Shown here piece after piece: positions 9,401 through 58,111 of a stretch of DNA of 64,000 nucleotides. Both the position numbers and the translations under genes were made by a program. Positions within the stretch are counted from its first letter, which is position 1. Every line of letters starts with the position of its first letter. Below the pieces are notes generated by a model, which saw only the letters and a program-made list of their open reading frames with translations, did no database searches and had not been told where the DNA came from. Source of the DNA: Mesotaenium endlicherianum (lineage: Eukaryota); the NCBI GenBank assembly GCA_009602735.1, contig WELA01002286.1, forward strand, positions 104,409 through 168,408, given 5' to 3'.

Positions 9401-10000
9401 AGCAAACACGTCCGAGTCTTGAGTGTTCGCGGATCTATGGAACTCTATCAAGCGAATTTGTATGCCTGACATAAGATTGTTTGAGTAAGTCTCGGCATGC
9501 AATGTCTACCCGGGTATGTGTAGCAACTACCTTCCTGCTGCAATGAGGCTTCTTTGCAACAAGAAGCCTTATGAGGGTTTCGTTTGTCGATGAGACAACA
9601 CGTGTGAAATCGATCAAATTTGAACACTTGTCAAATTTTATTTTGCGACATTTCATGTCGCAAACCTTCAATTTGACTCTTTTCAAGTTGTAAGTCGAGT
9701 TCATGTCAACTTTGATAAAGTGGGCAGACTGAAAACTTTCAGTCAAGTTGTGACGATGGAACTTTGTATGAAGATAAAGTTTGAACTTTTGACAGCACTT
9801 TCAGACTCATCGACCAATGCACATATGAACACTTGTGTGGCGGCAGTACAGAAGCAAAGAGACAGCTGCATACAAGAAACATACGATCATATATAAAATT
9901 TACACGCCAAACAATGAGGCACATGACATGTGCTTACCTACTTTATCAATATCGTTACACCAACGGCACGACCTCCATCGCAAAACCAGCAAATAACCTA

Positions 10001-11340
10001 CTAGTCTAGAAGGGCAGCAACGGCTGTTGCAGCGTCGCGACTAATACTCTCTAACAAAGTGCTATACTCGTCGGCTAAGCCCTGCACAGTGGCCTGGGAG
10101 TAGAGGTCGGTGTTGTAGACAAAGAGCCCCTCGAGCCCGCCTCCGGGCAAAACCTTCACCCCCAAGCCGATCTCCGACTTGGCAAACTCATACCCTGCCT
10201 GATCTGCGGGCTCCACCACCAGACCTGGAAGGCCCGACGTGCCGAGGCCGCCTTCATAGTCCACCTCGTCCAGCGTGAACCCTGTCTGGACCAGGGAGGC
10301 CCTGCTTGTGTCAGCGGCAGCAGAATCCGGGACCAGTGCCTCCACAACGCGGACAAATGGCACGTCCTGGTTGTCAAACGCCTCCAGCACACGCACCCTG
10401 ACTTGGGCCAGGAGGTCCACGAACGTGACACCTGGCGCAAACGTGGCAGCTGCCACCACTGTGTTCACAAACATGCCCAGCAGAGGCTCCAGCTGCGCCC
10501 GCACACGGCCTGCCACGTCAAACGCCACCAGGACCTTCTCCTGGTTGGTGCGGATGTGCAGCAGCGCCTGGTACGCCGCCAGCAGCACCATGAACAGCGT
10601 GCCGCCGTGCCTCTGGCCGACCCTGCGGAGGCCCTGAGCCACCTCTGCGCCGACCACAACCGTCACGCTGCCCCCCCGGTGGCCGAGCACGACTGGCCGC
10701 TCCCAGTCCGTCGCCAACTGCAGCGGAGCCGGGTTGAGGCCTACTACGTCTTGCCAGTACGCCAGCTGGCGATCCAAAAGCGCACCAGACACGAGCTGCC
10801 TGTGCCACAGAACGTAGTCGCCGTACTGCACCGCGAGCGGTGGCAGCCCATCCAGAGACTGCAACTTGTAGCAGTGCGCCAGCTCGGCGCAGAACGGCTC
10901 CGTGGACTCGCCGTCAAATGCCAAGTGGTGCATCGTGAGGAGAAGCACGTGCTCATTCGGTCCCAACGCTATCACGAGGCCTCTGATGGGCAGCGACTGC
11001 GGATCCGTCAGCTGGAAGGGCTTGTTTGCCTCCTCATTGGTCATCCTCGTCACCTCAGCGCCCTGCGTCTCCCCCTCCGGCAGCTCCGAAATGTCCACGA
11101 GCGGCAGCCTGAGTGGCACCTCACCTGCCGGCCGCACAACCTGCACCACATCCCCGCCTTCCTTCACACGGTAGAACATCCTGAGGGACTCGTGCCTGTC
11201 TACTATGAGGCTGACAGCTGTCTCCAGGCGCACCACGTCTAAATCCCCTCTGACCCTCCATGCATAGGGTATGTTTTCACTGCCAGGTGTCTGCAGCTCC
11301 TTGGTCCACGTGATCTTCTGGGGTCCACTCAAGGGCAGCT
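10001..11340 (-). other. NRPS terminal condensation domain
   Basis: MHHLAFDGES (10925-10930), QLAYW, FMVLLAAYQALL, GMFVNT, NQDVPF, FVYNTDLYS, then a stop. No TE or reductase domain follows. Confidence 0.9.
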
Positions 11341-14300
11341 CCCCGTTCTCAAGGCCCGACCGATCCATGGCTGTCAACGGGGGGCCCTGCTCGCCCACCT
11401 TGGAGCCGGCCAGCGCTGCGGCCACGCCTGCCACCGTGGAGTCCTTGAAGAAGACGCTCATGGGGAGGCTCTTGTGCAGCTGCTCCGTCAGCATGGCCAG
11501 CACGCGCACCGCCATCAGGCTGTTGCCGCCCATGCGGAAAAAGTCCGTGCTTGGAGTGACACCTGGCCCTGCGACAGTGCCCAAGACCTCTGCAAAGACT
11601 CCCGCCACCACCTCCTCCTGCTGGCTGAGGGGCCGAGCGGGGCCCTGCGTGGAGGCGCCTCCACCTGTCAAAAACGCTTCCCTCGTAGGCGGCGGCAGCT
11701 TCTTGCGGTCGATTTTACCCGACACGGTCTGCGGGAACTCGTCCATGACCACATACGCCGACGGAATCATGTAGGAGGGCAGCTTCGACACAGCCAGCTG
11801 CTGGACGGCGTGCGCGTCCAGGAGAGCCTCCACCCGGCCTGCACTCTCTGCCAGTGCCGGAGTGAAGTAGGCCACTAGGCACTGCTGCCCGTTGGCATCC
11901 GCCCTCACTGCCACAGCGGCCTGCCCGATCCCCGGCGCCGACGCCAGCACATTCTCGATCTCCCCGAGCTCGATGCGGTTGCCCCTCAGCTTCACCTGCC
12001 ACGCGGCGAAAGGAGAAGAATGATCTCACAGCCCAACAGTTCCTCGGTGCACACCTTGCTTGGCTGCATGTGCGCACACTACTCACACACACCGCTACCA
12101 CGAGCGCCGCCCGGCTGCATATACCAAACGCTGGCACCCAAAAACACATACTGACACACAAATAGACATAATCATAGCATGGAAACACGGAGAAAATGAT
12201 GACGAGCAACGTTTGTGTGTTTTGGGGTAGTTATATGCCAGGCAGTGGGCACTAGGTGGGAGCGAAGGAGCAAGCACAAGGGGCCATGCGGCTTACCTGC
12301 GAGTCCATGCGGCCGAGGAACTGCAGGTGGCCGCTGGGCAGCCAGCGGCAGAGGTCACCCGTGCGGTACATGCGCGCGTCGTGCGCCCCCGTGCTGTACG
12401 GATTGGGGACGAACTTCTCCGCCGTCAAATCGGGCCTGCCCAGGTAGCCCTCTGCCACCTGGATGCCGGCAATGCAGAGCTCTCCCGGGACGCCAACTGG
12501 CAGCAGTTCCGCATGGGGCCCCAGCACAAACGGATACACGTTGGCCAGGCCCTTCCCAATGGTGTCGAACACCTCATCCCCTGCTCCCCAGAGCATGGCC
12601 GTGGCGGTGACGGCTGTCTCCGTGGGGCCGTAGCCGTTGACGCACGTCACGCCCTCGTCAGTCCACTTGCGGATGAGGGACACGGGCACGGCCTCCGCGC
12701 CCAGATCAATGACCTTGAGGCCGGGCGTCTGGGCGGGCTGCAGCGTGGCCACCACCGTGGGCGTGGAAACAGCGTATGTCACCCGGTTGGTCCGCAGGAA
12801 CGCGCCCAGGTCCGTCAGCAGCTCCTCCTTGGAGCAGATTGCGAGCGGCACGCCGTACGCCAGTGCCAGGAACACCTCTTGGACGTGCACGTCGAAGACG
12901 CTGGGTGCCAGCTGGGCCACACAGGTGTCGGCATCCCAGGGCAGGAGGGCCTGGTATGCGCGCACGAGATTGACGACTGACCTGTGCGCCAGCTGCACGC
13001 CCTTGGGCTCGCCCGTGCTGCCGCTCGTGAACAGCACGTAGCAGATGCTCTCGGGCGTGGGCCTGTGCGCCTCCAGGTCCACGTTCCCATGTCCTGCTCC
13101 TGCAGCAGGCTCCTCCAGCGCATCGAGCGCCGTGACCTCCACGCCCTGCTCCGACGGCAGCCAGGCCAGGAGCTCCAAGTGGGCCGCTCCGGACAGCACC
13201 ATCGCCAGCCCCGCCTGCCGCACGATGCTCTCGGTACGCAGCCGCGGGTATGACGGCTCCATGGGCACGTAGCCGCCGCCCACCATCAGCACGCCCAGCA
13301 TGGCCGCCACCCACTCAACGCTGCGGTCAAACACGAGGCCCACCAGCTTGCTGGCCTGCCCCTTGGCCGCCACGTGCGCCGCCACACGCCGCGCCAGCCG
13401 GTGCACTTCCGAGAAGGTGGCGCTGCGGGCCCCATCCACGACGGCCACCCGCGACGCGTCCTTGGCCACCTGCGCCTCGAACAGCTCCACCAGCGTCGCG
13501 GCGGCCACCTCCCCTCCCTGCTCCTGCTCCTCCTCCCCGGCCCCGTCGCTGGCCAGGCCCGCAAACGTCCTCAGGACCAGCTCGCGTTCGTCCGGCTGCA
13601 TGACCGCCAGCTGGCTCAGCGGCGAGGCGGCGTCTCTGCAGATGGAGCGCAGAAGCTCCTGGAAGTGTGACGCCAGCCGCTCGGCGGTGGCGGGGGCGTA
13701 CAGGTCGGCGTTGTAAACGAGCTCCCCGCTCAGGCCGCCATCCTCGACCGTCTCAAGCCCCAAGTCCAGCTCGAACTTGGCGGAGACGCCGCCGCCCCCG
13801 TCCAGCGTGCCCAGCACCTCCACCCCAGCCAGCTGAAGGTCGCTTTCCAAGCTGCCCTTGCCCTCCTCCAATGAGAACATGGTCTGGAAGACGGGCGACC
13901 TGCTGGAGTCCCGCGTGGCCGACACCTGCCCCACGACCTTCTCAAAGGGCACGTCCTGGTGGTCCAGCGCCCCCAGCACGCGCGCCCTCACGTGCGCCAG
14001 GAGGTCCGCAAAGCTCGCCTCTCCCCTGCCCTCTGCAGCCCCCTGAGCCGCCAGGAGCTCGAAGTCAGCCACCGCCACGACCGTGTTTACGAACAAGCCC
14101 ACCACTGGCTCCAGCGCCGCCCTCACCCTGCCGGCAGTGGGGAAGCCCACAATGACGCGCTCCTGCCCCGTGTAGCGGTGCAGCAGCGCCTGGTACGCCG
14201 CCAGCAGCACCATGAACAGCGTGCTGCCGTAGCGCGCCGCCACCTGACGCAAGGCCTCCACGGCCGCCGCCTCCAGCGACACCCTAACGGTCGCGCCCCT

Positions 14301-17300
14301 GTGGCTCTCCACGCCCGGGCGCACGAAATCTGTGGCTAGCTGCAGTGGCTCGGGGTCCACGCCCAGGAGCTCCTTCCAGTAAGCCAGCTGGCCCTCCAGC
14401 ACCGCGCCCGACATGTAGCGACGCTGCCAGACGGCGTAGTCCACGTACTGCAGGGGCAGTGCGGGCAGCCCCTCCGCCGACCCGTCCTTCTCGTAGCAGT
14501 GGGTGAGCTCCTCAAAGAAGACGCCTGCGGACTCCCCGTCAAACGCAATGTGGTGCATCGTCAGCATCACTATGAAGCGGTCCCCGCCCTCCCGGACAAC
14601 GGCCCCCCGAATGGGCCAACTGTCGGGATCGTTGAGATCAAACGGCGCGGCCGCCTCCTCCTCCACCAGCGCCTCCACCTCCGCCGCCTTCCCCTCCTCC
14701 GGGCGGCCGGAGACGTCAAAAACGGCCAGCTTGAACGGCCGGCTGCCCGCGCCTGCAGAAGACCGCACAAACTGCAGGGGCACGCCCGCCCTGCTGCTGC
14801 CATAGGTCGTGCGCAGCACCTCGTGCCTCGCGACGACGGCCGCCAGCGCACGCTCCAGCCGCGCAACGTCCAGGGCCCCGCTTACGCGCCATGCGGCGGG
14901 CATATTGTAGTGGGAGGTGCCCCCGCCTTCGATCTGGTCCATGACCCACATGCGGTCCTGCGCGAAGCTCAGTGGCAAACCCCCGCCGTCGTCGGCCGCC
15001 ACGGCCGCCCTGTCCACCACGCCCAATGGGGGCTCCTCCTTCCCCGACGAGCGCAGGGCGGAGACAAGGCCGGCCACTGTTGAGTTGTGGAAGAAGTCGC
15101 CCACGGTGAGGCTCTTGCCCAGCCGCTCCCGGACCAGCGACACCACGCGGATGGCCATGAGGCTGTTGCCGCCCAGCCCGAAAAAGTCAGACCGCGCGCT
15201 GATGCCCTTGGCGCCGCCCACGGTCAGCACCTCCGCAAAAATGCCGGCCACCATCTCCTCCTGCACCGTCAGCGGCCGCGCGCTCCCCCCGCCGGCCGCA
15301 CCCGAGGCCGAATAGAACGCCTCCGCCGTGGGCGGCGGCAGCTTCTTGCGGTCGATCTTGCCTGACACCGTCTGCGGGAACTCATCCAGCACCACGTACG
15401 CGGTGGGCACCATGTAGCTTGTCAGCTTGGAGGCCGCCACCTGACGCACACCCTCCACGCTGAACGCCGCCCTGTCCTCAGGGCAAAGGTACGCCGTCAG
15501 GTGGTCCCACCCGGCCTCGTCCTTCTTCACCAGCACCACCGCCTGGCCCACGCCCGGCGCCTGGTCCAGCACGTTCTCTACCTCGCCCAGCTCGATGCGA
15601 TTCCCCCGCAGCTTCACCTGCAGACATGCCAGGGCAGATCAGATTCAGGCTCCGCCCACATACAAAGAGATAACGACCTCGTCCTGCACACCTGCAACCG
15701 TGTGAGGTGTTGGTGGCAGGTAACACTGTGCAGCAGTCATGCAGGTGCACTCCATAAGGAGAGGCCGGCGCCTGCTTTGGTCCCCTTCTCCCTTCACACA
15801 TGCATAGAGTGCGACAACAGCTGCGCTGTTGCCTTACAAGTGCAGCAGTCCCTTCGCCCCCCGGCAGACAACAGGACAGTGTAGGCATGCCACTCACTTG
15901 CGAGTCCATGCGGCCGAAAAACTGCAGGTGGCCGCTGGGCAGCCAGCGGCACAGGTCGCCCGTGCGGTACATGCGCGCGTCGTGCGGCCCCGTGCTGTAC
16001 AGATTGGGGACAAACTTTTCCGCTGTCAAATCGGGCCTGCCCAGGTAGCCCTTGGCCACCTGCACGCCCGCGATGCACAGCTCGCCCGGGACGCCGATGG
16101 GCAGCACCTCCCCGTGGTGCGCGCCCAGCACCAGCGGGTAAACCTGCGGCAGGCCGGTGCCGATGGTATCAAATACGTCGGCGCCCGCCTCCCAGAACAC
16201 GGCGGTGGCCGTCACCGCCGTCTCCGTGGGGCCGTAGCCGTTGACCACCGTGGTGCCCGCGTCTGTCCAGCGGCGGATGAGCGCCACGGGCACGGCCTCC
16301 GCGCCCAGGTCCAGCACCTTCAGGCAGCTGGCCTGGCTGGGCTGCAGCCCCGTGGCGAGCGTGGGCGACGTCACCAGGTACGTCACGCTGTGCTGCGACA
16401 GGAACGCGCCCAGGTCCGTGAGCAGCTCCTCCTTGGAGCAGACGGCCAGCGTGGAGCCGCACGCCAGCGCCAGCCACACCTCCTGCACGTGCACGTCAAA
16501 CACCGACGCCGCCAGCTGCGCCATGCAGGCCGTCGCGCCCGCCGGCAGCAGCCTCCGGTACGCCTGCACCAGGTTCACCACCGAGCGGTGCGCCAGCTCC
16601 ACGCCCTTGGGCTCGCCCGTGCTGCCGCTCGTGAACAGCACGTAGCAGCTGTCGTCGGGCGAGGGCTTGCACGCCGTCACCTGGCTCTCTTCTCGGGGCT
16701 CCGCCGGGGGCAGATCCGTGACATCCACCAGCACCAGGGGCACCGCCGCCGCAGCCATCCAGGCGAGGGCGTCCAGGTGCGCGGGCGTGGTAAGCACCAG
16801 GCTTAGCTGCGCCTGCTGCGACACGCTCTCCATGCGCCCTCGCGGGAACGTGGGCTCCATGGGCACGTAGCCGCCGCCCGCCATCATGATGCCCAGCATG
16901 GCCGCCACCCACTCCACGCCGCGGTCCATCACCAGCCCTACCAGGCGGCCGCCCTGGCCCTGGGCAAGAAGGAATGCCGCCACCTGGAGGGCGAGCGCAT
17001 GCACCTCCTGGTAGGTGGCACTGCGCTCCCCCGACAGCACAGCCACCTTCTGTGGGGACGCCGCCGCGGAGGCCAGGAACAAGTCCACCAGCGTCTCCTC
17101 GTAAGTCTCCACCTCCCTGCCCCCGCCGGAGAACTTGTGTAGCACCATGGCCTGCTCCTCCGCGCCCATCAGCGCCAGCTGGTGCAGGGGCAAGCCGGCT
17201 GCAGCCGCGGCCGCCCGCAGGAACTGCTGGTAGTGGCCAGCCAGCCGCTCCACTGTCTCCTGCGAGAACAGGTCCACGTTGTACTCGAGGACACCTGTCA

Positions 17301-20300
17301 GCGTGCCGTCGCCCTCCTTCTGCAGGCTGAGGTCGATCTCGAACTTGGCGGCACCCATCTCCTCCGCCAGGCTGCCCGTCACAGCGACACCTGGTAGCGT
17401 GATAGTGCTCGCTTCCGCCAGCGTGAACATCGTCTGGAAGACCGCGGACCGGCTGGGGTCGCGCACCGTCACGACGTCGGCCACCACCTTCTCGAAGGGC
17501 ACGTCCTGATGGTCCAGCGCCTCCAACACGCGCGCACGCGTCTGCTTCAGGAGCTCCAGGAACGTCACCTCGCCCTTCTCTCCAAAGTCGGCAACGGCCA
17601 CCACGGTGTTGACGAAGAGGCCCACAACGGAGTCCAGCTGCGCCAGAGTGCGCCCGCCCACAGGGATGCCCACCAGCACGCGCTCCTGCCCCGTGTAGCG
17701 GTGCAGCAGCGCCTGGTACGCCGCCAGCAGCACCATGAACAGCGTGCCGCCCGTCTGCTGCCCCAGCTGGCGCAGGTCCCTGGCGAGCGCGGCATCCACA
17801 GAAAAGTGCACGCTGGCGCCGCGGAAGCTCTGCTTGATCGGCCGCGGGAAGTCCAGTGCCAGCTGGAGCGGCTCGGGGTCGACGCCTATCAGGTCCTTCC
17901 AGTACACCAGCTGGCGGCTCAGAGCAGCCCCCGACATGTACTCCCTGTTCCACGCCGCAAAGTCTGCATACTGCAGCGCCACGGGCGGCAGCGTCTCCGC
18001 ACTGCCCCCCTGCTCATAGACGTGTGCGAGCTCGCGGAAGAAGACGGCGCTAGAGCCCTCGTCGAACGCGATGTGGTGCACCGTCAGCATCAGCACCCAG
18101 CTGCTGGCCCCGCATTTGGCCACACGCCCACGCATCAGCAGGCTGCTCGTGTCATCTATGTGGAAGGGCGTCTGCGCCTCCTCCAGGAACAGCCACTCCA
18201 CCTCCGCCTCCTGTTCCTCCGGGGCCAGAGGGGCCAGGTCCACGACAGGTAGACTGAAGAGGCTTGCCTTGTCCTCCTCCAGCACTACCTGCTCACACGC
18301 GCACACACACAGGCACACGCAGATGGCATCGTCGTCTTTAGGAGCAGCAGGAGGTGCTGTCTCAAGGAAGAGCAAGCCGTGAGTGCACAGGGGAGCAGGC
18401 CATGCCAGGCAAGGAAGGCTCTCTGAGTCGAGCTTCATTTCATGCCATCGCTGAAAGTAGGCCCCACCCGACAGGAAGGGGGTCACACACCTGGACAGGG
18501 GTCCCATCGTGGCTGGCGTAGAGCGTGCGCAGGGCCTCGTGGCGCGCGATGAGAGCGCGCACGGCCGACTCCAGGCGGGGCACGTCCAGCGCGCCCTCGA
18601 TGCGCCACGCAAACGGGATGTTGTAGTGGGCGCTGCCCCCGCCGCCCTCCAGCTGGTCCATGGCCCACATGCGCTCCTGCGCAAAGCTGAGCGGCAGCCT
18701 GCCCCCGTCCCCGGCCAGGAGGAGCGCCCTGTCCAGCGGGACGAGGGGCGGAGGCGCCGCACCGCCGCTGTCGGCACCGCCGCTGGCGTTGACGGCGGTC
18801 GCAATGCCGGCCACGGTGGAGTCGTGGAAGAAGGTGCCCACGGTGATGGCGCGCCCCACGCGCTCCTTCACCAGGCTGATCACCTTGATGGCCATCAGGC
18901 TGTTGCCGCCCATGGCAAAGAAGTCGCTATGCGGCCCGACGTCGGCGATAGCGTCACCGCCGCCTGCGAGGCCCAGCACCTCCGCAAACACGCCGGCCAC
19001 CACCTCCTCCTTCTGCGTGAGCGCGCGCTCGCCTGCCTTGACGGCGCCGCCCGACAGAAATGCCTCGGGCGGGGGCTGGGGCAGGTTCTTGCGGTCCACC
19101 TTCCCCGACACGGACTGCGGGAAGTGCTCCATGAGCATGTACGCGCTGGGCACCATGTACGTGGGCAGCCGCGAGGCCGCCACTTGGCGCACGGCCGCAA
19201 TGTCCACTGTGGATGCCTCGCCAACGGAGGGCCTCACATACGCCGCCAGAAAGAGCTGCTGCCCTTCGTCCTTCCTCACCATCACAACCGCCTGGCCCAC
19301 CCCCGGCGCCTGGCAGAGGGCGTTCTCGATCTCCCCCAGCTCTATGCGGTAGCCGCGCATCTTCACCTGCACCACGCACCAGGGCTCGGTTGTCAGCAAC
19401 ACTACCACATCCTCCAGGGGGCCCACCACTGACGGACTTGTCTCTGCTCACTCACTCTCACGTCACAGGGAAGGGCAGGGAGGCGGGGGTGGCGGGCACC
19501 GCACCTGAGAGTCGAGGCGGCCGAGGAACTCGATGTGACCGCTGGGCAGCCAGCGGCAGAGGTCGCCCGTGCGGTACATGCGCGCGTCGTGCGGGCCCTT
19601 GCTGTACGGGTTGGGCACAAACTGCTTAGCCGTCAGCTCCGGCTTGTTGAGATAGCCCTGCGCCACCTGCACACCGGCGATGCAGAGCTCACCAGGAACG
19701 CCCACCGGCAGCACTTCCTGGGTCTTGCGGCCCAGGATGAAGGCATACACCCCGGGCAGCGAGGCCCCGATGGTGTCGTACACCTGCGCCCCCGCCTCCC
19801 ACACCATGCGCGTGCACGTCACCGCCGTCTCCGTGGGCCCGTACGAGTTGACGACCAACACGCCCGCGCTGGTCCACCGTGCGATGAGGCTGACCGGCAC
19901 GGCCTCGCCGCCCATCTCCAGAAACTTCAGCCCCGGCGCCTGCGACGGCTGGATGGTGGCCACCACCGTGGGCGTGGCCTGGATGTACGTGGTGCGCGTG
20001 CGCTCCAAGAAGCCCGGGAGGTCCGTCAGCAGCTCCTCCTTGGAGCACACGGCCAGCGCGGCGCCGTGGCTGAAGGCCAGCCACACCTGGTGCACGTGCT
20101 GGTCGAACACGGCGGGCGACAGCTGGCCCACCACGCTGCCCTCGTCCAGCGGCAGCAGGTGCAGGTACGACTTGACCATGTTCACCACCGAGCGGTGCAC
20201 CAGCTCCACGCCCTTGGGCTCGCCCGTGCTGCCGCTCGTGAACAGCACGTAGCAGATGCTCTCGGGCGTGGGCCTGTGCGCCCGCAGCGCCGCTCGCTCG

Positions 20301-23300
20301 CCCTCGCTCACGGGCGGCATGTCGGCCACCACCGCCACCTCCACGCCCTTCTCCGCCGTGAGCCACCCGAGGCCCTCCGCGTGCTCTCCTGACGTCAGCA
20401 CCAGAGCCAGCTTGCCCTGGCTGGTGATGCTCTCCACCCTCAGGCGCGGGAACGACGGCTCCATGGGCACGTAGCCGCCGCCCGCCATCATGATGCCCAG
20501 CATGGCCGCCACCCACTCCACGCCGCGGTCCATCACCAGCCCCACCAGGTGGGGAGCATCCTGGCCGCCGCTGCCGCCTCTGCCTTTGCCAGCCCCGGCG
20601 GCGGCGCTGCGCCGAGACGCCACAAAGCAGGCCACGCGCTCGGCGCGCGCGTGCATCTCCGCGTACGACACCTGGCAGACGGCGGCATCCACGACGGCCG
20701 TGGCGTCGGGGCGCGCGCGCACCTGCGCCTCGAACATGTCCCACAGCGTCTCGGAGTGCACGGCCACGGGGCGGTACACGCCGGAGAACTTGTGCAGCAC
20801 CAGCGACTCCTCGTCCGCGCGCATGAGCGGGATCTCGTGCAGCGGGTCCTTGGCGTTACGCGGGATGCAGCGCAGCAGCTCCCGGTAGTGCCCCGCCAGC
20901 CGCCGCATGCTGGCCGCCGAGTACAGGTCCGTGTTGTACTCCACCACGCCCGCCAGGCTGCCGTCCGCCTGCCGGTCCAGCGACAGCTGCAGCTCAAACA
21001 TGGCCGCTGCCGACCCGAACGAGAGTGGCGTGACGTCCGCGCCCGCCACAAATTGGCTGTTGGAGCTAGAGATGGCGGCGCCCGCGCCCTCGTCCAGCGA
21101 GAACATCGTCTGGAAGACCGCGGACCGGCTGGGGTCGCGCACCGTCACGACGTCGGCCACCACCTTCTCAAAGGGCACATCCTGGTGGTCCAGCGCCTCC
21201 AGCACGCGCGCGCGCGCCTGCTGCACCAGCTTCACGAACGACAGGTGGCCGCCGTCACCGCCCTCAAAGTCGGCCACCGCCACGACCGTGTTGACGAAGA
21301 AGCCCACCAGGCTCTCCAGCTGAGGGTGCACGCGTCCGGCCACGGGGATGCCCACAATGACGCGCTCCTGCCCCGTGTAGCGGTGCAGCAGCGCCTGGTA
21401 CGCCGCCAGCAGCACCATGAACAGCGTACCGCCCGTCTGCTGCCCCAGCGCCTGCAGCGCCGCCACAGCGTCCGCGTCCACAGAGAGGCTCACGCTGGCG
21501 CCGTTGTGCGTTTGCTTGGCGGGGCGCACAAAGTCGGTGGCCAGCTGCAGCGGGTCCGGGTTTGGGCCGATGAGCTTGCGCCAGTACGCCAGCTGCTCCT
21601 CCAGGCGCGCACCCGACACGAAGGTGCGGTGCCAGATGGCAAAGTCTGCGTACTGCACGGCCATCTGCGCCAGTCCCTCGGCCGTCGAGAACTCGTAGCA
21701 GTGTGCCAGCTCGCGGAAGAATACGCTGTTGGACACGCCGTCGAACGCGATGTGATGCACCGTCAGCAAGAACACGCACGACGCTGCTGTCGCGTTCTCC
21801 TCCTCCTTCAAGTCCTCCTCCACCAGGACGCCCCGCAGCGGCAGTCCCGCCGGATCGTTGAGGTCGAAGGGCGCCAGCGCCTCCTTCCTGGCCAGACGCC
21901 GCACGGCCCCGTCCTCCTCGCCTTCCGCGCTGGCACCGCCCCCGTCAGCCTCCGACAGACGGAGGGTGCGGATCTTGACCTCCACGTCCTCGGCCCGGCG
22001 CACGATCTGCACAGGCGCGCCCTCCACCGTTGCAAAGTAGGTGCGCAGGATCTCGTGGCGGCCCAATAGGGCCGTAAGCGCTTGCTCCAGGCGCCCCAAG
22101 TCAAGGTGCCCGCGAATGCGCCAGGCAAAGGAGATGTTGTAGTGCGCGCTTCCACCCTCCAGCTGGTCCATGGCCCACATGCGCTCCTGCGCAAAGCTGA
22201 GCGGCAGCTTCCCGTCCTTAAACTGCGCGCGCGCTACGGCCGTGAGCGCGGGCCCCTTGCTGATGGCGCGGCCCGCGTGGATCTGCGAGGCCACGCCCGC
22301 CACGGTGGAGTTCTGGAAGAAGCCGGCCATGGAGATGCTCTTGCCCAGCCGCTCGCTGATCAGCGCCAGCACGCGGATGGCCATCAGGCTGTTGCCGCCC
22401 AGCCCGAAGAAGTTGGCGTGCGGCCCAACGCGCACGCTGGCCTGCAGGCCCAGCACCTCCGCAAAGATGCCGGCCACCACCTCCTCCACCTGCGTCATCG
22501 TGCGCTCGTCGCCCAGCGCCAGGCCGCTTGTCAAAAAGGCGTCGCTGGTGGGCTCCGGCAGGCGGCGCCGGTCCACCTTGCCCGAGACGGAGTGCGGAAA
22601 CTCCTTGAGGACCACGTACGCGGCGGGCACCATGTACGCCGGCAGGCGCGACGTGACGGCCGTGCGCACCTCCCCAATGTCCACCTCCACGCCCGAGTGC
22701 GGCCGCAGGTACGCCGCCAGGTACTGCTGCTGCTGCGCGCTGTCCTTGCGCAGCATGGCCACGGCCAGGCTCACGCCAGGCGCCTTGCAGAGCGCGTTCT
22801 CAATCTCGCCCAGCTCGATGCGGTTCCCCCGCAGCTTCACCTGCACACGCAGCAGCCGCCACCGCCACCAGCAGGACAAGGGTGAGGGCGGGGGCCGAGG
22901 ATGCGAACAAGGGCAGGGTATATTGCTGGGGGGGCAAAGCATGCAGCTGCCCGGCAGCAGCGGCTTCACCATTGTATGTAGCGGCAACAACAGGGTGGGG
23001 CTGGGGGGCAGGCCGGCTGACCTGCGTGTCGATGCGCCCGAGGATGTGGATGGAGCCGTCGGGCAGCCAGCGACAGAGATCGCCCGTGCGGTACATGCGC
23101 GCGTCGTGCGGGCCCTTGCTGTACGGGTTGGGCACAAACACCTTGGCATTCAGGTCAGCCCTCCCCAGGTAGCCCTCAGCCACCTGCACGCCAGCCAGGC
23201 AGAGCTCCCCCGGCACGCCGATGGGCAGCAGCTCCTGGTGCGCACCCAGCACGTACGCATACACGTGCGCCAGGGGCCCACCGATGGTGTCCGTGGGCTC

Positions 23301-26300
23301 CGACCCCGCTGCCCACACAGTGCGCGTGACCGTCACCGCGCACTCCGTGGGACCGTACGAGTTGACAACTGTCACGCCTGCTCGCGTCCACCTGGCAATG
23401 AGGCCCACAGGCACGGCCTCACCGCCCATCTCCAGCACCTTGAGGGACGGCGCCAGAGACGGCTCCAGCAGGTCGGCCAGCGTGGGCGTGGCCTGGATGT
23501 AGCACACGTCGTGGCGCGACAGGAACCCCGCCAGGTTCGTCAGCAGCTCCTCCTTGGAGCACACGGCCAGCGCGGCACCGTGACTGAAGGCCAGCCACAC
23601 CTGGTGCACGTGCTGGTCGAACACGGCGGGTGATAGCTGGCCCACCACGCTACCCTCGTCCAGCGGCAGCAGGTGCAGGTACGACATGACCATGTTCACC
23701 ACCGAGCGGTGCGCCAGCTCCACGCCCTTGGGCTCGCCCGTGCTGCCGCTCGTGAACAGCACGTAGCAGATGTCGTCCACAGACGGCCCGCCGTGCGCAG
23801 CCACCTGCGCCGCGTCGCCTGGCGCGGGCGCCAGCGTGTCCACATCCAGGACGCTCACGCCCGCCCCGCCCATCCAGTCCAGGCCGGCCAGGTGCTTGGC
23901 GGTGGTGAGCACAAGCGCCAGCCGTGCCTGGCTGGCAATGCTCTGCATGCGCACCACCGGATAAGACGGCTCCATGGGCACGTAGCCGCCCCCCGCCATC
24001 ATGATGCCCAGCATGGCCGCCACCCACTCCACGCCGCGGTCCATCACCAGCCCCACCAGCAGGCGCGTGCCCCGCCCCCCTTCTCCCTCCTGCTGCAGCT
24101 GCTGCTGCTGCTGTTGGCGGTGGTGCAGGACGGCGGCAGCGACGGCCGTCGCCTTCTCGTGGAGCTCGCGATAGGTCACGCGGCCAACGGCGTCGTCAAT
24201 GACGGCCACGGCCTCGGGCGCCGCGCGCAGCCGCGCCTCAAAGAGGTTTACCAGAGTCTCGGGGTACGCCTGGAACGGCACCTGCGCGCCGCTGAAGCGC
24301 TCCAGGACCAGGGCACGCTCCGCCTCGTCCGTGAAGGGCAGCGCCTGCAGGGGCACGCCCATGTCGGCGTCGCGGGCGGCCGCAAACGCCAGCAGCTGGC
24401 GGTAGTGGCCCGCCATGCGCTCCACAGAGGCCTGCGAGTACAGGTCTGTGTTGAACTCCAGGCAGCCGCCCACACTGCCGTCGTCGCGCTTGCTGAGCAT
24501 CAGGTTGAGCTCAAACATGGCGGCGCCGGTGAACGTGGGGATGGGCGTCACGGCCTCCATGCCCGGCAGCGCCAGCGAGGCGCCCTCGCCCAGCGTGAAG
24601 CCCGCCTGGAAGACGGGCGAGCGGCTGGGGTCGCGCACCGTCACCAGCTTGCCCACCACCTTCTCAAAGGGCACGTCCTGGTTGTCTAGTGCCTCCAGCA
24701 CGCGCGCGCGCGTCTGCTCCAGCAGCTGCAGGAAGGTCAGGCCCTTCTCGCCCGGCGCCGCGTCCGCAAACTCGGCGACGGTGACCACCGTGTTGACGAA
24801 GAGGCCCACGAGCGGCTCGATCTGCGCACGGATGCGCCCGGCCACGGGGATGCCCACCAGCACGCGCTCCTGCCCCGTGTAGCGGTGCAGCAGCGCCTGG
24901 TACGCCGCCAGCAGCACCATGAACAGCGTGCCGCCCGTCTGCTGCCCTAGCGCCTGCAAAGCCGCCACCTGGGGGGGGTCTAGATGCAGCGGCACGTAGC
25001 TCCCGCTGTGCGTCTCGCGCGACGCACGCACGTAGTCCGTCACCAGCTGCAGCGGCTCGGGGTCCTGGCCAATGAGGCCCTCCCAGTAGCCCAGCTGCTG
25101 GCTCAGCAGGCCGCCGCCGCTGCCCACGTAGGCGCGGTGCCACACGGCGTAGTCCACGTACTGGATGCTCATGCGTGGCAGGCCCGCCAGGTCGCCGTGC
25201 TCGTACAGGTGCGCCAGCTCGTGGAACAGCGTGCCCTCTGCGCCCTCGTCAAAGACGCTGTGGTGCAGGGTGAGCAGCACCACGTGCTCGCGCGCACCCG
25301 CGCGGATAACGGCGCCGCGCACCAGCAGGCTGCGCACGTTGCCGAGGTTGAAGGGCAGCTGCGCCTCCTGCCGCACCAGACGCTGGATCTGCAGCTCCTT
25401 CTCGTCAACGTCGCCATCGCCGTCCAGCTCGAAGACGGGCAGGTTCATGGTGGAGTCCTCCACGGGGCGCACCGTCTGCACGGGCACGCCGTCCTCCGCC
25501 TTGTACACAGTGCGCAGGATCTCGTGGCGCTCCAGCAGCAGGTTCAGCGCGCGCTCCAGCCGCGCCACATGCAGGGGCCCGCGCACGCGCCACGCGTACG
25601 GCAGGTTGTACTGCGAGCTGCTGCCGTCCAGCTGATCCATGACCCACATGCGCTCCTGCGCGAAGCTGAGCGGCAGGAAGCCCTGCCGGTACTGCGCGCG
25701 GTCGATGGCCACCAGCGGCGCGCCCGCGGCCTTGACGGAGTCGCGCCCCGCCAGCGCGCTCGCCACGCCTGCCACCGACGACTGCTTGAAGAACTTGCCC
25801 ACCGTAAGCGTCTTGCCCAGCCGCTCGCGCAGCAGCGCTATCACTTTCACTGCCATCAGGCTGTTGCCGCCCATCTCGAAGAACCCAGCCCCCGCGGGGA
25901 TGTCCGCCGCCGCAGCCGTCCCCAGCACCTCCGCAAACACGCCCGCCACCGCCTCCTCCTCTGGAGTCCTTGCCCTCCTGTCCCCCTCCTCCTCCCCCTG
26001 CTCGCCTCCCTCAAAGCCGCCCCCGGGGATGTGGAACGCCTCGGGCGGCGGGGGTGGCAGCTTCTTGCGGTCCGTCTTGCCGGAGACGGTCTTGGGGAAC
26101 TCGTCCAGCACCACGTAGGCAGCGGGCACCATGTAGGCAGCCAGGCGCTTGACGGCCGTCTCGCGCACCAGGCGCAGGTCCAGCGGCGTGGCGGGGTCCA
26201 CGGGGCTCACGTACGCCACCAGGCTCTGCTGGAACACGGTGCTGATGGCCTTGGCCACGCCGGGCGCCTGGCACAGCACGTTCTCGATCTCGCCCAGCTC

Positions 26301-29300
26301 GATGCGGTTCCCCCGCAGCTTCACCTGCCCACGCAGCAGCCGCCACCGCCACCAGGCCGGGATGCTCAGTCACCTACCCTTTTGCTACTTTCGTTTCACA
26401 CCCTCCCTGCTTCCCCCCAGTTTCTCTCCTGGGGAGCAGAGTGGAAGCTTTATCTCCCTGAGGTAGCAGAGATATGCATGCATGCGCACCACCTGATTGC
26501 TCAAGGGGTGCCAGGCTTGCAACCGACCCACTGACTGACGCACGGCACTACCCTGTGGAGGACATCCCAAACAACACTAGCGTCGCGTCCCGCCACTGGG
26601 GAGGAGGAGGGGCGAAGGGGGATGGGCAGAGAGAGCGCACCTGGAAGTCGATGCGACCGAGGAAGTGGATCTGGCCGTCCGGCAACCAGCGGCAGAGATC
26701 GCCCGTACGGTACATGCGCGTGTCCAGGCTGCCGTTGGCGCCGCTGCCGCCCATGGCGCTGAGGCCGCTGCTGTAGGGGTTCATGGCAAACTGCTTGGCC
26801 GTGGCCTCCGGCCGGTTGAGGTACCCCTGCGACACCTGCACGCCCGTCAGGCACAGCTCGCCCGGCACGCCGATGGGCAATGCCTCCAGGTGGGGCCCCA
26901 GCACGTATACGTTGACACCTGGCAGGCTGCGGCCGATGGTATCCACCACGCGGTCCCCCCGCTTCCAGACCTTGTTGAGAGCAGTGACGGCGCACTCCGT
27001 GGGACCGTAGCCGTTGACGACTGTCACGCCCTCGGCAATCCACTTGGTGATGAGGGGCACGGGCACAGCCTCCCCGCCAAATTCCAGGATCTTGAGGGTG
27101 GGCGCCTGGCTGGGCTCCAGCAGCGCAACGACTGTGGCCGTGACCTGGATGTACGTCACGCGGTGGCGCATGATGAAGGCCCCCAGGTCCGTCAGCAGCT
27201 CCTCCTTGGAGCACACGGCCAGCGCGGCGCCGTGCCCGAGCGCCAGCCACAGCTGCTGCACGTGCAGGTCGAACACGGACGGCGCTACCTGGCCTATGAC
27301 GTCGGCCTCCGTCAGCGGAAGCTGCGCCAGGTAGGACTTGACGATGTTCACCACCGAGCGGTGCGTCAGCCGCACGCCCTTGGGCTCGCCCGTGCTGCCG
27401 CTCGTGAACAGCACGTAGCAGGCGCTGTCCAGCTCGGGCGCGCACGCGGGGACCGCGTCGAGCGCCCCCGGCGAGACGTCCGGCAGCGCCCTGAGGTCCA
27501 GGAGCGCCACGCCCTTCTCCTCGCGCTGCCACGCCAGGTCGTCCGCGTGCTCCGTGGTGGTGAGCACAAGCGTGAGCCCCGTCTGGCGGATGATGCTCTC
27601 CATGCGCAGCCGCGGATACGACGGCTCCATGGGCACGTAGCCGCCGCCCGCCATCATGATGCCCAGCATGGCCGCCACCCACTCGATGCCACGGTCCACG
27701 ATGAGCCCCACCAGCTGGCGCCCTGCCCCCGCCAGCCCCCCCTGCGCGCGCCCGTGCTCGGCCACGAGGGCGGCCACGCGGAGCGCCAGGTCCTGTAGCG
27801 CCATGTACGTGATGGTGCGCTCGCCGTCCACCACGGCCACGTTGCTGGGCGTGCGCGCGCACTGCGCCGCAAATAGGTCCACCAGCGTCTCGCGGTGGGG
27901 CGCGTAGGGGCGTGCGGCACCCGAGAAGGTCTGCAGCACCGTGTGCATTTCCTCTAAGCCCATCACGCGCAGCTCGTGCAGCGGCGCGCTGGCGCTCTTG
28001 CCCGCGGACGCCGCCAGCTCCTGAAAATGCGCCGCCAAGCGCTCCGCCGACTCGCGCAGGTACAGGTCCGGGCGGTACTCCAGCACGCCGCTCACGCTGC
28101 CATCTGCGCTCTCGCTCAGAGCCAGCGCCACCTCCGCACCCCCCCAGCCGTCCCGGGCATCGTTGTCGCCGCCTGCCAGCTGGCTGACGACGCGGCTGCC
28201 TTTGACGAGCCGCGCGCTGCTGAGCACAAACGCCGCCTGAAAGAGGGGCGCGCGGGCCGGGTCGGGCGCGGATACCAGGGCGCGCACAAGCTCGCCCAGC
28301 GGCAGGTCGCGGTGCTGCACCGCGTCCATAAGCTGCTCCCTCATCTGCTGCACCAGCTCGATGAACGTCATGGCCTTGCCCTCCTCGAAGGTGCCGACTG
28401 CCACCAGCACGCCACCGTTTGCCTGGCTGGCAACGGCGCCTGGCGCCTTCGAGGCAGCCCCTATAGGGAGCCCTACAGACAAGCGCTCCATCCCGGTGTA
28501 GCGCTGGAGGAGGGCGGCAAAGGCAGCCAGCAGGACGGTGAAGAGGGTGGCGCCCTGGCGGTGCGCCAGGCCATCCAGGGCATGGACGACGTCGGCGCTG
28601 ACCTGGACGCTGATCTGGGCCTTGTGGTGGGTCAGCACGTTGGGGCGCGGCAGGTCCGCCACCAGCTGCAGGGGCTCGGGGTCGCCCTCGATGAGCCCCG
28701 TCCAGAAGGCCAGCTGCTCCGGCGCCGAGAACTTCCTCCTGCTGGCCGCTTTCAGGATCTGCCAGTGGGGGGGAGAGCACAGTTGGTGGCTCGCTTCGTC
28801 ACAGGTTCCACCATGTGCGGAGAAAGGGACAGTTGTTGCACCCTTGATCAAGCAGCATTCCCAATAGCGTACGACCATACGTTTCACTGACAACAAATAC
28901 TTGATGCTCACAACCATTGAGGGAAAGTGAAATTGAGTCACACGGGAAGCACTGCCCAAGCGCGTGCCCATGATCCGATTCAGAAAGAGAGAGAGAGGGA
29001 GAGAGAGAGTGTGACCTGGGCAATCCAAGAGGGGAAGACGGCGTGCGCGTCGCCGTCCAGGCCCAGGGAGACAGCCAGTCCCTGCAGGCCCTGCGCCAGG
29101 CCTTCGTGCGTCACCTCCACCGCGCTCCCCTCCTCGCTGTCGTACTTGAGATAGGCCAGGCTGCGCAAGGAGGCCTGCGGAGCGGAGTCGCGCCCATTCT
29201 GGTGCCCGTTCATGTCGCCATTCTCCGCATGCTTCCCGCTTGGCGGCTCGCTGGGAGGGACATCGATGAGTCGAGGAGTGGCAGCGCTGGTCTTGCATTG

Positions 29301-31885
29301 GCTGCCACCGCGACTGGGCAGGCCGCCACTAGTAGACTCCGTCGGCTGCACAAGCCAGCAGCGAGGATCAGCGGCTGTAATGAGTGCTATCTGCAGCCCA
29401 GTCTTGATGATGACAACACACCCCCCCGGCTGCTGTGACATCACTCGGTTGTCCTTCCCTCTCTCCATCTCCAGGTTGAGCGCACCCCCCCGCAGACTGA
29501 CTCCTCATCCACACTCTGCGACTGCCATGCAGTGGGTCAAGGGAGGGGCAGGCTGCAGCACCCAGTGCCCTCCCTCCCAGCTGCTGCAAAGCCCATGAGG
29601 AGAAGGGAAAGGGGATGACTCATGAGCATGAGCAGCAACGGCAGCACTGGATCGAGAAATCAGGAGCGCAGGCTGGGGGAGCACTAGCACCTGTCGGGGC
29701 GAAGGGGAGGGGGAGGGGGAGCTGGGGGAGGAGGAGGAGGCGAAGCTGTTGGGCAGCACATGCAGCTGCTGCGGGGCGCCTCCTCCCTCCCGCGAGCTCA
29801 GCGCCTCCACAAACTCAAAGTACTCCGCAGTTGTCAGCCCGGCAGTCACGCCGCTTGCCGCCACCACTGCGGTCAGATGCTCCGCCAGCAGATCGGACAG
29901 CTCCGGGAGCTCGACCGGCACGGGGACCACACCTGGCAGCACCATAGCAGGGCGCCACAGCACTTGCCACCCGGCCAGTCAGCCCATCGTCGCACCCACC
30001 ATCTGCAGGGCGCCCGGTGCCAAGAGAGGCCTGGGAGGGGGCTCAGATGGAGGCGCTGGTTGGCAGTAGACCTGAGCTCTAATCAGTAGCAGCAAGGGAG
30101 CTTGACACGCCCCCAGACAGAGAGAGGGACACCTGTCATCCCGCAAGAGAGGAAGCACAGGGACGGCCAGGCAGGCCCTTCCTGGACAACCGGCCACAAG
30201 TGTGACCTGGAGGACGAGAACAATGGCATAGAGAAGAAGGGAGGGCGCGGACGAGGAACACACTGGGTGGCAGACATGGGTAAACCCCCCCCCACCCCCC
30301 CCCACCNNNNNNNNNNNNNNNNNNNNNNNNNNNNNNNNNNNNNNNNNNNNNNNNNNNNNNNNNNNNNNNNNNNNNNNNNNNNNNNNNNNNNNNNNNNNNN
30401 NNNNNNNNNNNNNNNNNNNNNNNNNNNNNNNNNNNNNNNNNNNNNNNNNNNNNNNNNNNNNNNNNNNNNNNNNNNNNNNNNNNNNNNNNNNNNNNNNNNN
30501 NNNNNNNNNNNNNNNNNNNNNNNNNNNNNNNNNNNNNNNNNNNNNNNNNNNNNNNNNNNNNNNNNNNNNNNNNNNNNNNNNNNNNNNNNNNNNNNNNNNN
30601 NNNNNNNNNNNNNNNNNNNNNNNNNNNNNNNNNNNNNNNNNNNNNNNNNNNNNNNNNNNNNNNNNNNNNNNNNNNNNNNNNNNNNNNNNNNNNNNNNNNN
30701 NNNNNNNNNNNNNNNNNNNNNNNNNNNNNNNNNNNNNNNNNNNNNNNNNNNNNNNNNNNNNNNNNNNNNNNNNNNNNNNNNNNNNNNNNNNNNNNNNNNN
30801 NNNNNNNNNNNNNNNNNNNNNNNNNNNNNNNNNNNNNNNNNNNNNNNNNNNNNNNNNNNNNNNNNACCCCCCCCCCGTTTTCCAGAAAAGAATTAAAAGA
30901 AAACAAAATGACAGCAATCGGCCCGCTGCTACCGAAGCTAGTGAAGCACTTGCGCAGCAGCTTGCAGACAGGCAAAGAAGCCCAGCTGCTGCAGCGGTCA
31001 GGCGATCCCGCCTGGCTCAAAATGCTCGAGGCAAAGAGCCCCTAGTCAGATCTTGGGCGTTTTAACTCACAGTATCTAGACTGCGCCCGTTACGTGATGT
31101 GTGTATACATTCACATTTCCATAGGGCAGGGGGCGGGGGTGACATCCCTTAATTATGCTTCTGACGACCCGGGTGCACAGCCAGCTGAGAAGGTACCAAA
31201 AATAGGTTCACGGTCCCACCCTTAGGCCCCCTGCCTTGCGTGCGACTGTGTCTGCTCTGTCCCTTACCTGTCAGGTAACACAGCGGGTATCTGAGTGAAA
31301 AGGAAGGGAAAGGGGGCACTTTTAGTACGCATCTCATTGACGTCAGACAACTCCCAGCTAGCTACTCCAGCCCAGGGTCAAAGAATACCGGCGCTAGGCT
31401 GAAGATCAGAAATGGCCTTCTTCTTATTCACACTGACCTGCATATAGACATGCGAGAAATGTGCATGCCAGCTGTGGTCCAGGAGGAAATGCGAGGAGGA
31501 CACGCGTCTCTCTTCTGATCTGCAAGACGGCAGTCAGCTGTTGCTCCACTGCCAGGACCTTCTGGCGGAGATCCTTGTACGTGCAGGTAACCTCATCGCT
31601 ATGTCCATTCACAACCGGAATGCCAACTGCACCGGGCGTCCTTCGGGATATCGACAACCAACGGAGGGCGACGTCATCGGGGTAATTGATGGCAGCTTCT
31701 TCTAAGAAAGAGATTAGAGTCTGAGGGGAGTGCTTTGATATTCCCCCACTGGTGCCATGACTCTGCAGCCAGATTGGACTGTTACTGAAAGATCGAGGAC
31801 TACTAGCAAATCCATGACTAATCCGTCTTATTAATGCACCATACGGTGGAGCTCTTTCTATATTCAGAGGGTAAGCAGGTGCCAT
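10001..31885 (-). CDS. Five-module NRPS, ~6,119 aa, 10 exons: 31885-31438, 29932-29691, 29345-29016, 28758-26641, 26324-23022, 22840-19505, 19366-18491, 18288-15898, 15617-12297, 11995-10001
   Basis: Five A domains (YVLFTSGSTGEPKG, N[G/S]YGPTE, RMYRTGDL, GRxDxQVK, SGKxDR), five T domains (FFxxGGNSL) and five full C domains (HHxxFD[G/E]) plus a half C. All nine junctions are GT-AG and phase-compatible, with no internal stops in the spliced frame. Exons 4-10 are high confidence; the exon 2/3 boundaries are inferred. Confidence 0.93.
11410..14980 (-). other. NRPS module 5: C-A5-T5
   Basis: C MHHIAFDGE (14550-14555), A5 FDVHVQE, T5 FFRMGGNSL (Ser 11519-11521). Boundaries approximate. Confidence 0.92.
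15055..18705 (-). other. NRPS module 4: C-A4-T4
   Basis: C VHHIAFDEG (18073-18078; this C has a private intron 18490-18289), A4 FDVHVQE, T4 FFGLGGNSL (Ser 15162-15164). Boundaries approximate. Confidence 0.92.
18790..22210 (-). other. NRPS module 3: C-A3-T3
   Basis: C VHHIAFDGV (21752-21757), A3 FDQHVHQ, T3 FFAMGGNSL (Ser 18899-18901). Boundaries approximate. Confidence 0.92.
22285..25680 (-). other. NRPS module 2: C-A2-T2
   Basis: C LHHSVFDEG (25260-25265), A2 FDQHVHQ, T2 FFGLGGNSL (Ser 22388-22390). Boundaries approximate. Confidence 0.92.
25750..28758 (-). other. NRPS module 1: C-terminal half of a C domain + A1 + T1
   Basis: Starts at EQLAFW...PLQLVADLPRP with no HHxxxD lobe. A1 has FDLHVQQ. 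T1 is FFEMGGNSL with the Ser codon at 25860-25862. Boundaries approximate. Confidence 0.88.
28985..29009. repeat. (GA)n microsatellite in NRPS intron 3
   Basis: agagagagagagggagagagagag read directly. Confidence 0.75.
29016..31730 (-). other. NRPS N-terminal FAAL (fatty acyl-AMP ligase)-like domain, truncated and degenerate (exons 1-3)
   Basis: TLISFLEEAAINYPDDVALRWL...TYKDL...VLLAFPPGPQLACTFLACLYA|GVVPVP...HLTAVVAASGVTAGLTT...LAYLKYDSEEGSAVEVTHEGL...FPSW is colinear with the N-terminal half of FAALs. The TSGSTGxPKG loop is lost and the domain stops at the SW(LP) position. Confidence 0.75.
30307..30865. other. Assembly gap (559 N) flanked by poly-C runs, within predicted NRPS intron 1
   Basis: Run of N with C-homopolymers on both sides. 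Confidence 0.99.
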
Positions 31886-45500: not shown

Positions 45501-45741
45501 GATTTGAATCCAAGGCGAGAAGCCATTGATATGCACTGTCTCTTAGCCTTGCTTATGTGTGAGTTTACCGATTGCATTATTGATGCCAGTTTACTTCTAT
45601 TTGACTTACAAGTATTGTCCACAGCTTGTGTGTTGTCTTTTGCTGTTTCATCAATTAACAGAAAATACCATAAAGATTACTTGCTGATATAAAGATCTTC
45701 ATTAACTGTTAATCCCCTATTTGGTAAGTCGATTCATTTCA

Positions 45742-57613: not shown

Positions 57614-58111
57614 TGTAGTGCACGTGGATAACGTACTTAGTGAAATATAATACTATATCTATTCTAGACAAGGATCTATCAACACAAGTGGTAGCTTCTT
57701 GAAAGAGAGCTGGCTTCTTGAAAGTTAATATATTTCTGGACTTTGGCAAGTACAAGAGTGATTTTGGAATGTCTTTCTATGTTCTAGCTCTTGTTTATAT
57801 AGTTGCTACATAAGGAATTTCTAGGAAAGTGTATGTTGATGTGTTGGCACCCAACACATCCCAAAACTTGCCACCTCTTTCTAGAATAATGTACACATGT
57901 CCTTTTGACCTAAAAATGGCACATTTGACTTTTGCCACATGGAGTTCTTCTAGGTCCTTCCTCTAACTTCAAAAATTCCTTAGAAGGTTCAAAGGACATC
58001 AACCAAGTCACTAGAGTATCTAGTCACTCTTGCCTCCACACAATACTACTCCAAATATATTCAAAAGCATCAAAATATATGTTAACTCATATATTATATC
58101 TCAAATCACTA
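57614..58111. mobile_element. Family B solo LTR-like insertion in the family D integrase
   Basis: Interrupts QTDGQIERIN|RVM. Homologous to 36044-36313 + 42283-42515. Confidence 0.82.

Follow-up and report, generated by a model that had tools for sequence, protein, structure and literature searches.

A phase-0 intron common to all five modules of an algal nonribosomal peptide synthetase gene suggests module amplification inside a eukaryote

Can a eukaryote grow a peptide assembly line from one imported module, or is such a line imported whole? The question arises at a nonribosomal peptide synthetase (NRPS) gene of Mesotaenium endlicherianum, located on the minus strand of a 64,000-nucleotide (nt) stretch of contig WELA01002286.1 (here called the window). 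The gene encodes half a condensation (C) domain followed by five modules of adenylation (A), thiolation (T), and C domains, and each A domain is split by an intron at the same point of core motif A8, which provides a natural tag for asking this question. We consider it probable that the A8 intron was gained once and that the module was then amplified inside a eukaryote. Taxonomy lookup places the host in the Zygnematophyceae (Streptophyta), the algal class nearest land plants (PMC9915684) and usually placed as their sister; in this class the five-module NRPS is intact and expressed.

An intron at the same site interrupts all five modules

As modeled here, the gene comprises seven exons (28758 to 10004) with 5,779 codons, no internal stops, and a GC content at third codon positions (GC3) of 0.89 across the module exons. 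Pfam matches give the order half-C/A-core, four times small A subdomain (Asub)-T-C-Acore, and finally Asub-T-C, i.e., half a C domain and five A-T-C modules, or 16 NRPS domains in ~6,000 residues. The top match of a HMMER search against 1.84 billion representative sequences was a protein of 6,035 amino acids (aa), P0361, with the source label jgi/Mesen1/1435/ME000131S00500, in which we take Mesen1 to stand for M. endlicherianum, a zygnematophyte. It shows no differences from the spliced 5,779-residue model, and the gene is already present with identical introns in the public annotation (ME000131S00500).

All five A8 introns are of the GT..AG type, in phase 0, and lie exactly between GRxDxQ and VK, as an initial annotation of the window had claimed from sequence. 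Transcript data confirm their coordinates: in four raw short-read RNA runs with the same species label from two studies (6-13% of each was read, for region 9900-29899), all six introns of the module region are spliced at precisely the predicted junctions, the five A8 introns summing to 329 junction reads (Table 1). The proto-splice context CAG|GT, also part of that annotation, applies to four A8 introns, the fourth in order (I4) having CAA|GT instead. Exons between the A8 introns are flanked 0-0 throughout, and the proposed symmetric units of about 1,100 codons, with one extra intron in C4, were recovered at the lengths given in Table 1. This C4 intron is specific to its module and was likely gained after module amplification; the counterpart of its site in C6, also CAG|GT, is free of introns.

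Each domain type forms a single clade

The outside set for comparison held 517 proteins with 1,552 A, 1,508 C, and 1,291 T domains; trees were calculated with the top-scoring outside domains (A, 250 or 25-29; C, 200 or 25; T, 200), and the named matches are bacteria plus one chytrid, fungal homologs being barely sampled. The A domains share 56-67% identity within the gene compared with at most 42% to any of the 1,552 outside A domains, while the corresponding values are 45-57% versus at most 46% for C domains and 52-62% versus at most 54% for T domains. In the per-domain phylogenies that the initial annotation had suggested as a check, the modules proved monophyletic relative to the closest outside domains: all five A domains fall into one clade with a support of 100 (with the 250 best outside domains and also in smaller IQ-TREE sets), as do all six C domains including half C1 and terminal C6 (support 100) and all five T domains (support 95). 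The three clades all sit on long stems.

Homogeneity of this degree is rare, not absent, elsewhere, since 5 of 248 outside multimodule proteins (at least four A domains) are as homogeneous as this gene. The sole named eukaryotic matches, bacterial-type NRPS pieces of the chytrid Boothiomyces (P0352 and P0516), fall outside the module clades of the gene. A protein from Kofleriaceae (P0499) is sister in the A trees (support 93-96); it was not accepted as the donor in view of the long branches. No ortholog emerged from the HMMER search or from a further three word-based ones covering proteins 218-5,000 aa long, which retrieved just the gene's own model; an ortholog longer than 5,000 aa and more than 50% identical could hide behind P0361 in 50% clusters. 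Among the matches listed, the best non-self identity per module was 41%. A GTDB scan gave 10 related loci at 29-38% identity, 128 pattern matches in viral contigs included no relatives, and matches in the ESM Atlas were limited to generic bacterial NRPS clusters.

Order of intron gain and module amplification

The favored history would have begun with the acquisition of a bacterial gene of the FAAL-ACP-C-A-T-C type (FAAL, fatty acyl-AMP ligase; ACP, acyl carrier protein), whose starter would now be a remnant consisting of an N-terminal FAAL piece and half a C domain; the precursor module would accordingly be of bacterial origin. One intron would then have entered the preexisting CAG|GT of QV at A8, and the module would have multiplied by unequal crossing-over between repeated domains, with the intron likely inside the copied unit. 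One further intron would have been gained in C4, and the modules would continue to exchange short tracts by gene conversion. The initial proposal that one intron-bearing module was amplified in a eukaryote gains from the monophyly, the junctions, and the improbability of independent gains discussed below, while concerted evolution is not separated from it by these data.

In an unlikely alternative, a ready-made multimodule bacterial gene was imported, and an intron gained once was copied between modules by conversion that also homogenized them. Conversion does occur in this gene: identical DNA tracts between modules reach 101 nt, although fourfold-site identity between modules is 0.32-0.70 (near saturation) versus ~0.50 expected, and for 12 of the 15 unit pairs the longest identical-codon runs exceed those of shuffles (P ≤ 0.001). 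Homogenization of modules is thus visible at the DNA level in a spliced gene. One tract spans the 3' splice sites of I1 and I2, in which 30 of the last 31 intron bases and the next 38 exon bases are alike and which is found nowhere else in the window; it is likely a product of gene conversion across a 3' splice site, judged from the sequence. Furthermore, concerted evolution produces gene-specific branching in bacterial NRPSs (PMC4256081), and the equally homogeneous outside proteins mentioned above fit this history as well. However, the tracts are at most ~100 nt long, whereas the transfer of an intron needs a tract covering the intron and both flanks, and no intron pair is similar at both ends. 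In the sequence flanking the introns, synonymous identity (224/314, 0.71) equals that of the whole gene (2510/3633, 0.69), four successful transfers would be required, yet the C4 intron stayed put, and the long stem is common to all domain types.

In almost all module pairs, the longest identical tracts recur at three motifs, namely, GGTLFMVLL in the C domain, EWVAAMLG in the A domain, and the A3 motif, which suggests preferred conversion sites or selection on these motifs.

The initial annotation had described the symmetric phase-0 exon Asub-T-C-Acore as a cassette. That this exon was itself the duplicated unit, with crossovers lying within introns, we consider improbable. The 0-0 exons of ~1,100 codons and the likeness of I1 and I2 at their 3' ends and ensuing exon starts would suit such a cassette, but with A cores paired 2/3 and 4/5 it predicts that Asub1/2 and Asub3/4 pair, whereas the closest pairs found were Asub2/3 (64% identity) and Asub4/5 (66%). 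The A cores likewise pair 2/3 (support 96) and 4/5 (support 91-94). Quartet counts of nucleotide sites for 23|45 were 9:0:0 at the end of the A core and 10:2:0 in Asub, where informative sites are few, and the quartet 12|34 showed no excess in Asub (3 versus 4 versus 2). Because the 2/3 and 4/5 pairing holds on both sides of the intron, the A8 intron sat inside the copied or converted unit, and the exon cassette is probably not what was duplicated. Moreover, a single intron would flank no cassette, which would make the first repeat impossible.

Five independent gains at the A8 proto-splice site are very improbable. The C4 intron shows that gain at CAG|GT occurs in this gene, and QVK is the usual sequence at A8. 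Modules 1 to 5 contain 5, 6, 7, 7, and 6 in-frame CA[AG]|GT sites, respectively, two of which are common to all five; even if these sites alone were usable, proto-splice introns placed at random, one in each module, would fall at a common site with a probability of about 2/8820 (~2e-4). The other common site (G[VI]Q|V, CAG|GTG in all five modules) is intron-free throughout, and the modules are not scattered among different foreign clades. A scan of metagenome contigs for A8 followed by GTRAGT found introns at A8 in none of 14 loci, all of which continue in frame through QVS; since the pattern catches just one of the five window introns and eukaryotic NRPS genes are presumably scarce in such contigs, this search for a hot spot is uninformative. 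One metagenome NRPS frame (L018:2501-2572) passes from A8 directly to T-like sequence, apparently without a small A subdomain.

An assembly artifact or bacterial contaminant, which the repetitiveness of the gene, the N gap upstream, and the nearly all bacterial named relatives might suggest, can be dismissed, as the modules differ at ~40% of residues, it is refuted by spliced poly(A) reads in four runs, and 20 listed runs, all of one organism and drawn from six studies, contain the stretch.

Several points weigh against single gain followed by amplification inside the eukaryote. Monophyly cannot tell eukaryotic amplification from concerted evolution of an imported multimodule gene, the tree supports are SH-like values from quick mixture-model trees and not bootstrap values, and no donor can be assigned from the trees. 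Neither an ortholog nor a one-module relative turned up in the searches described, which leaves the order of the two events to indirect evidence. The tract at the 3' splice sites of I1 and I2 shows conversion reaching into introns, which could in principle move them; the introns are otherwise unalignable, with 1 of 15 intron pairs significant. Because QVK stands at A8 in 1,189 of 1,506 outside A domains, A8 is a ready-made proto-splice site. Finally, the Asub evidence for the copied unit comes from few sites, the 23|45 signal may stem from later conversion of A domains, and the C and T quartets favored no grouping, so that breakpoints cannot be located.

Transcription and splicing

RNA coverage extended over all 30 bins of the mapped region in all four runs. 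Read depth was ~80-100 at the 3' end and only a few reads near the 5' end, and the first mate mapped mostly to the plus strand in three runs, which in most stranded libraries denotes minus-strand RNA. Both features fit one long poly(A) transcript, and a single end-to-end mRNA molecule would account for these short reads.

The most striking idea of the initial annotation, shorter assembly lines produced by exon skipping, found no support: no module-skipping junction is listed in the four runs (threshold, three reads from two starts), where normal junctions have 22-43 reads each in the most even run and rare or condition-specific skipping could escape. Full-length mRNA is the sole form seen, and the symmetry of the exons would be a by-product. 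A circular RNA was considered for a backward joint from 26322 to 23020 (3303 back; six reads in one run) and rejected: its 30-letter side sits within 38 letters that are identical at both exon starts, so the joint probably reflects misplaced reads. Loose read ends at 12995-13017, 16905-16922, 24020-24037, and 27372-27394 look like cross-mapping of another AMP-binding gene at the A3 motif, a candidate reading.

Relation to known synthetases

Module duplication itself is already known from fungal NRPSs and algal polyketide synthases (PKSs). The fungal SimA and peptaibol synthetases grew by tandem module duplication, with all A domains of one gene in one clade, read as eukaryotic tandem duplication (PMC2823734), and SimA has a truncated starter C domain comparable to half C1 (bioRxiv 10.1101/2020.08.21.262279). 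In contrast to these, the gene described here has a streptophyte alga as its host, an intron marking every module, and conversion tracts visible in its DNA; the word "intron" is absent from the main text of the fungal study (PMC2823734). Mortierella alpina MpcA and MpbA are likewise five-module, bacterial-like, and intron-bearing, begin with a truncated C domain lacking the HH motif, and have been attributed to horizontal transfer (bioRxiv 10.1101/2020.08.21.262279). They differ in having a thioesterase end, dual epimerization/condensation domains, and nine introns, and they resemble whole bacterial enzymes, whereas the algal gene, with its last C domain in the gene's own clade, lacks a close counterpart in bacteria (identity per module at most 41%).

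Multimodular type I PKSs of algae are also megasynthases with closely related modules and module duplication; they are PKSs, and they come from chlorophytes and others, NRPSs being rare in algae (PMC4661987, PMC7073580). In bacterial NRPS and PKS genes under concerted evolution, A and C domains likewise branch by gene, and internal recombination occurs (PMC4256081); here both are seen in an intron-bearing eukaryotic gene with one tract crossing a splice site. According to a 2010 fungal phylogenomics paper, plants were not known to have NRPS genes (PMC2823734). A table in a 2015 algal survey lists no NRPS for Klebsormidium, its one streptophyte, the largest microalgal NRPS then known being a 10-domain, 490-kDa enzyme (PMC4661987). 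In the titles and abstract openings listed, we found no report of a multimodular NRPS in Mesotaenium, zygnematophytes, or streptophyte algae, where supplements and genome-paper tables may list the gene, and none of an A8 intron shared across NRPS modules.

Domain motifs and predicted product

Core motifs FTSGSTG, FD, YGPTE, RTGD, GRxDxQVK, and GKxDRK, a set that we assume as the yardstick for A domains, are present in all five A domains according to alignments. Pfam AMP-binding was detected in each of them, and TIGR01733 scored above the cutoff in all four A-core exons scanned (the A4 exon was not among them). All five T domains carry the phosphopantetheine-serine motif GGNSL (GGxS type), and HHxxxD is kept in C2 to C6, the corresponding lobe being missing from C1. 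Catalytic motifs are hence intact in A1 to A5, T1 to T5, and C2 to C6.

Pocket residues, for which we adopted what we take to be the GrsA numbering, are identical within A2/A3 and within A4/A5; the predicted loading pattern for the five amino acids of the enzyme is therefore X-Y-Y-Z-Z, while individual substrates cannot be called from the pockets. Its C-terminal end is a C domain, as in fungal C(T)-terminated NRPSs, and a thioesterase is absent in the Pfam scan. Release of the predicted pentapeptide by terminal C6 could proceed via cyclization or amide formation. C6 clusters with C1 to C5 of its own gene (support 100) in trees without fungal C(T) sequences. An intact and expressed five-module NRPS in a cultured alga points to an undescribed peptide metabolite. 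Tentatively, and with about as much for it as against, the gene may be a captured bacterial module that underwent intron gain and five-fold multiplication, whose last C domain became a release domain and whose pockets are still being remodeled by intermodule conversion, with occasional module skipping enabled by the introns.

A FAAL-like remnant at the 5' end

Bacterial lipo-initiating NRPSs of the PRK05691/PvdL type have the domain order FAAL-ACP-C-A-T. For each of the six pieces of the algal gene scanned, a set without the C4-A4 exons, PRK05691 ranked first or second among the NCBIfam matches, and the gene has a FAAL-like piece at its N-terminal end. The candidate first exon matches Pfam AMP-binding at 1e-6, under the cutoff, and PRK05691 profile positions 7-87. 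When it is joined to 29932, a match to a profile of 14 FAAL-like N termini crosses the junction with an E value of 2e-16. The candidate 5' intron would be 1505 nt long and would span the N gap at 30307-30865. This gap of 559 bases could hide exons. RNA mapping stopped at 29899, so the candidate exon rests on sequence, as does its putative link to the remainder of the gene; its GC3 is 0.46 versus 0.89 in the modules. Following it, a 23-nt stretch at ~31290-31268 (minus strand) has good-looking acceptor and donor signals; its in-phase inclusion would introduce a stop, so that the FAAL-like exon could be part of a distinct, truncated unit.

Further downstream, the intron at 29690-29346 is spliced in 17 RNA reads; for the intron at 29015-28759 of the public model, no RNA junction is listed, and the repeat at 28973-29017 was skipped in mapping. 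The first two exons of the public model (33820-33674 and 32187-32137) gave no FAAL match, and its 5' end may be wrong in that it skips the best-matching FAAL exon.

The FAAL match covers just positions 30-132 of the 592-position profile, and the P-loop is degenerate. Neither the public model nor the candidate 5' join contains an ACP (the N gap could hide more), and C1 is a half domain. In contrast to the PRK05691/PvdL type, the gene as read here would not encode a complete FAAL-ACP lipo-initiating starter, and because of the FAAL remnant, the lack of an ACP, and the half C domain, lipo-initiation is predicted to be lost. The remnant suggests descent from a bacterial FAAL-ACP-C-A-T type gene with a decayed starter.

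Table 1. Features of the NRPS gene, with positions in the window
Feature	Positions	Strand	Evidence
Candidate first exon, N-terminal FAAL-like piece; absent from public model	31438..31885	-	Profile matches
5' exon, continuation of FAAL-like remnant	29691..29932	-	In P0361
5' exon, degenerate P-loop-like stretch, end of FAAL remnant	29016..29345	-	P0361 residues 147-256; weak FAAL match
Exon, C1 C-terminal half (without HHxxxD lobe) and A1 core	26641..28758	-	Pfam, alignments
Intron I1, phase 0 at A8, 316 nt	26325..26640	-	Sequence; 40 junction reads
69-nt tract (31 nt of I1 3' end and 38 nt of exon)	26287..26355	-	Matches 22871-22803, one mismatch
Exon Asub1-T1-C2-A2core, 1101 codons	23022..26324	-	Pfam, spliced model
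Intron I2, phase 0 at A8, 181 nt	22841..23021	-	Sequence; 38 junction reads
Exon Asub2-T2-C3-A3core, 1112 codons	19505..22840	-	Pfam, spliced model
Intron I3, phase 0 at A8, 138 nt	19367..19504	-	Sequence; 61 junction reads
Exon Asub3-T3-start of C4, 292 codons	18491..19366	-	Pfam, spliced model
Module-specific C4 intron, phase 0, CAG|GT, 202 nt	18289..18490	-	Sequence; 45 junction reads
Exon, remainder of C4 plus the A4 core, 797 codons	15898..18288	-	Pfam, spliced model
Intron I4, phase 0 at A8, 280 nt, CAA|GT	15618..15897	-	Sequence; 64 junction reads
Exon Asub4-T4-C5-A5core, 1107 codons	12297..15617	-	Pfam, spliced model
Intron I5, phase 0 at A8, 301 nt	11996..12296	-	Sequence; 126 junction reads
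Final coding exon, Asub5-T5 and terminal C6 (HHLAFDG), ending in TAG, thioesterase absent	10001..11995	-	Pfam, alignments

Surroundings of the gene

No tailoring gene was recognized among the 34 other reading frames of the window that were scanned, one of which is the FAAL-like piece. The NRPS gene lies in a GC island at 10000-30000 (0.63-0.71 versus 0.40-0.58 around it). Fragmented Ty3/gypsy retrotransposons occupy 37239-40536 (minus strand), 45693-46073 (plus), 50682-54410 (plus), and 56943-59092 (minus), with pieces of gag, protease, reverse transcriptase, RNase H, integrase, and a Tf2-type SH3 domain. These flanks, together with the spliceosomal introns, fit a nuclear gene.

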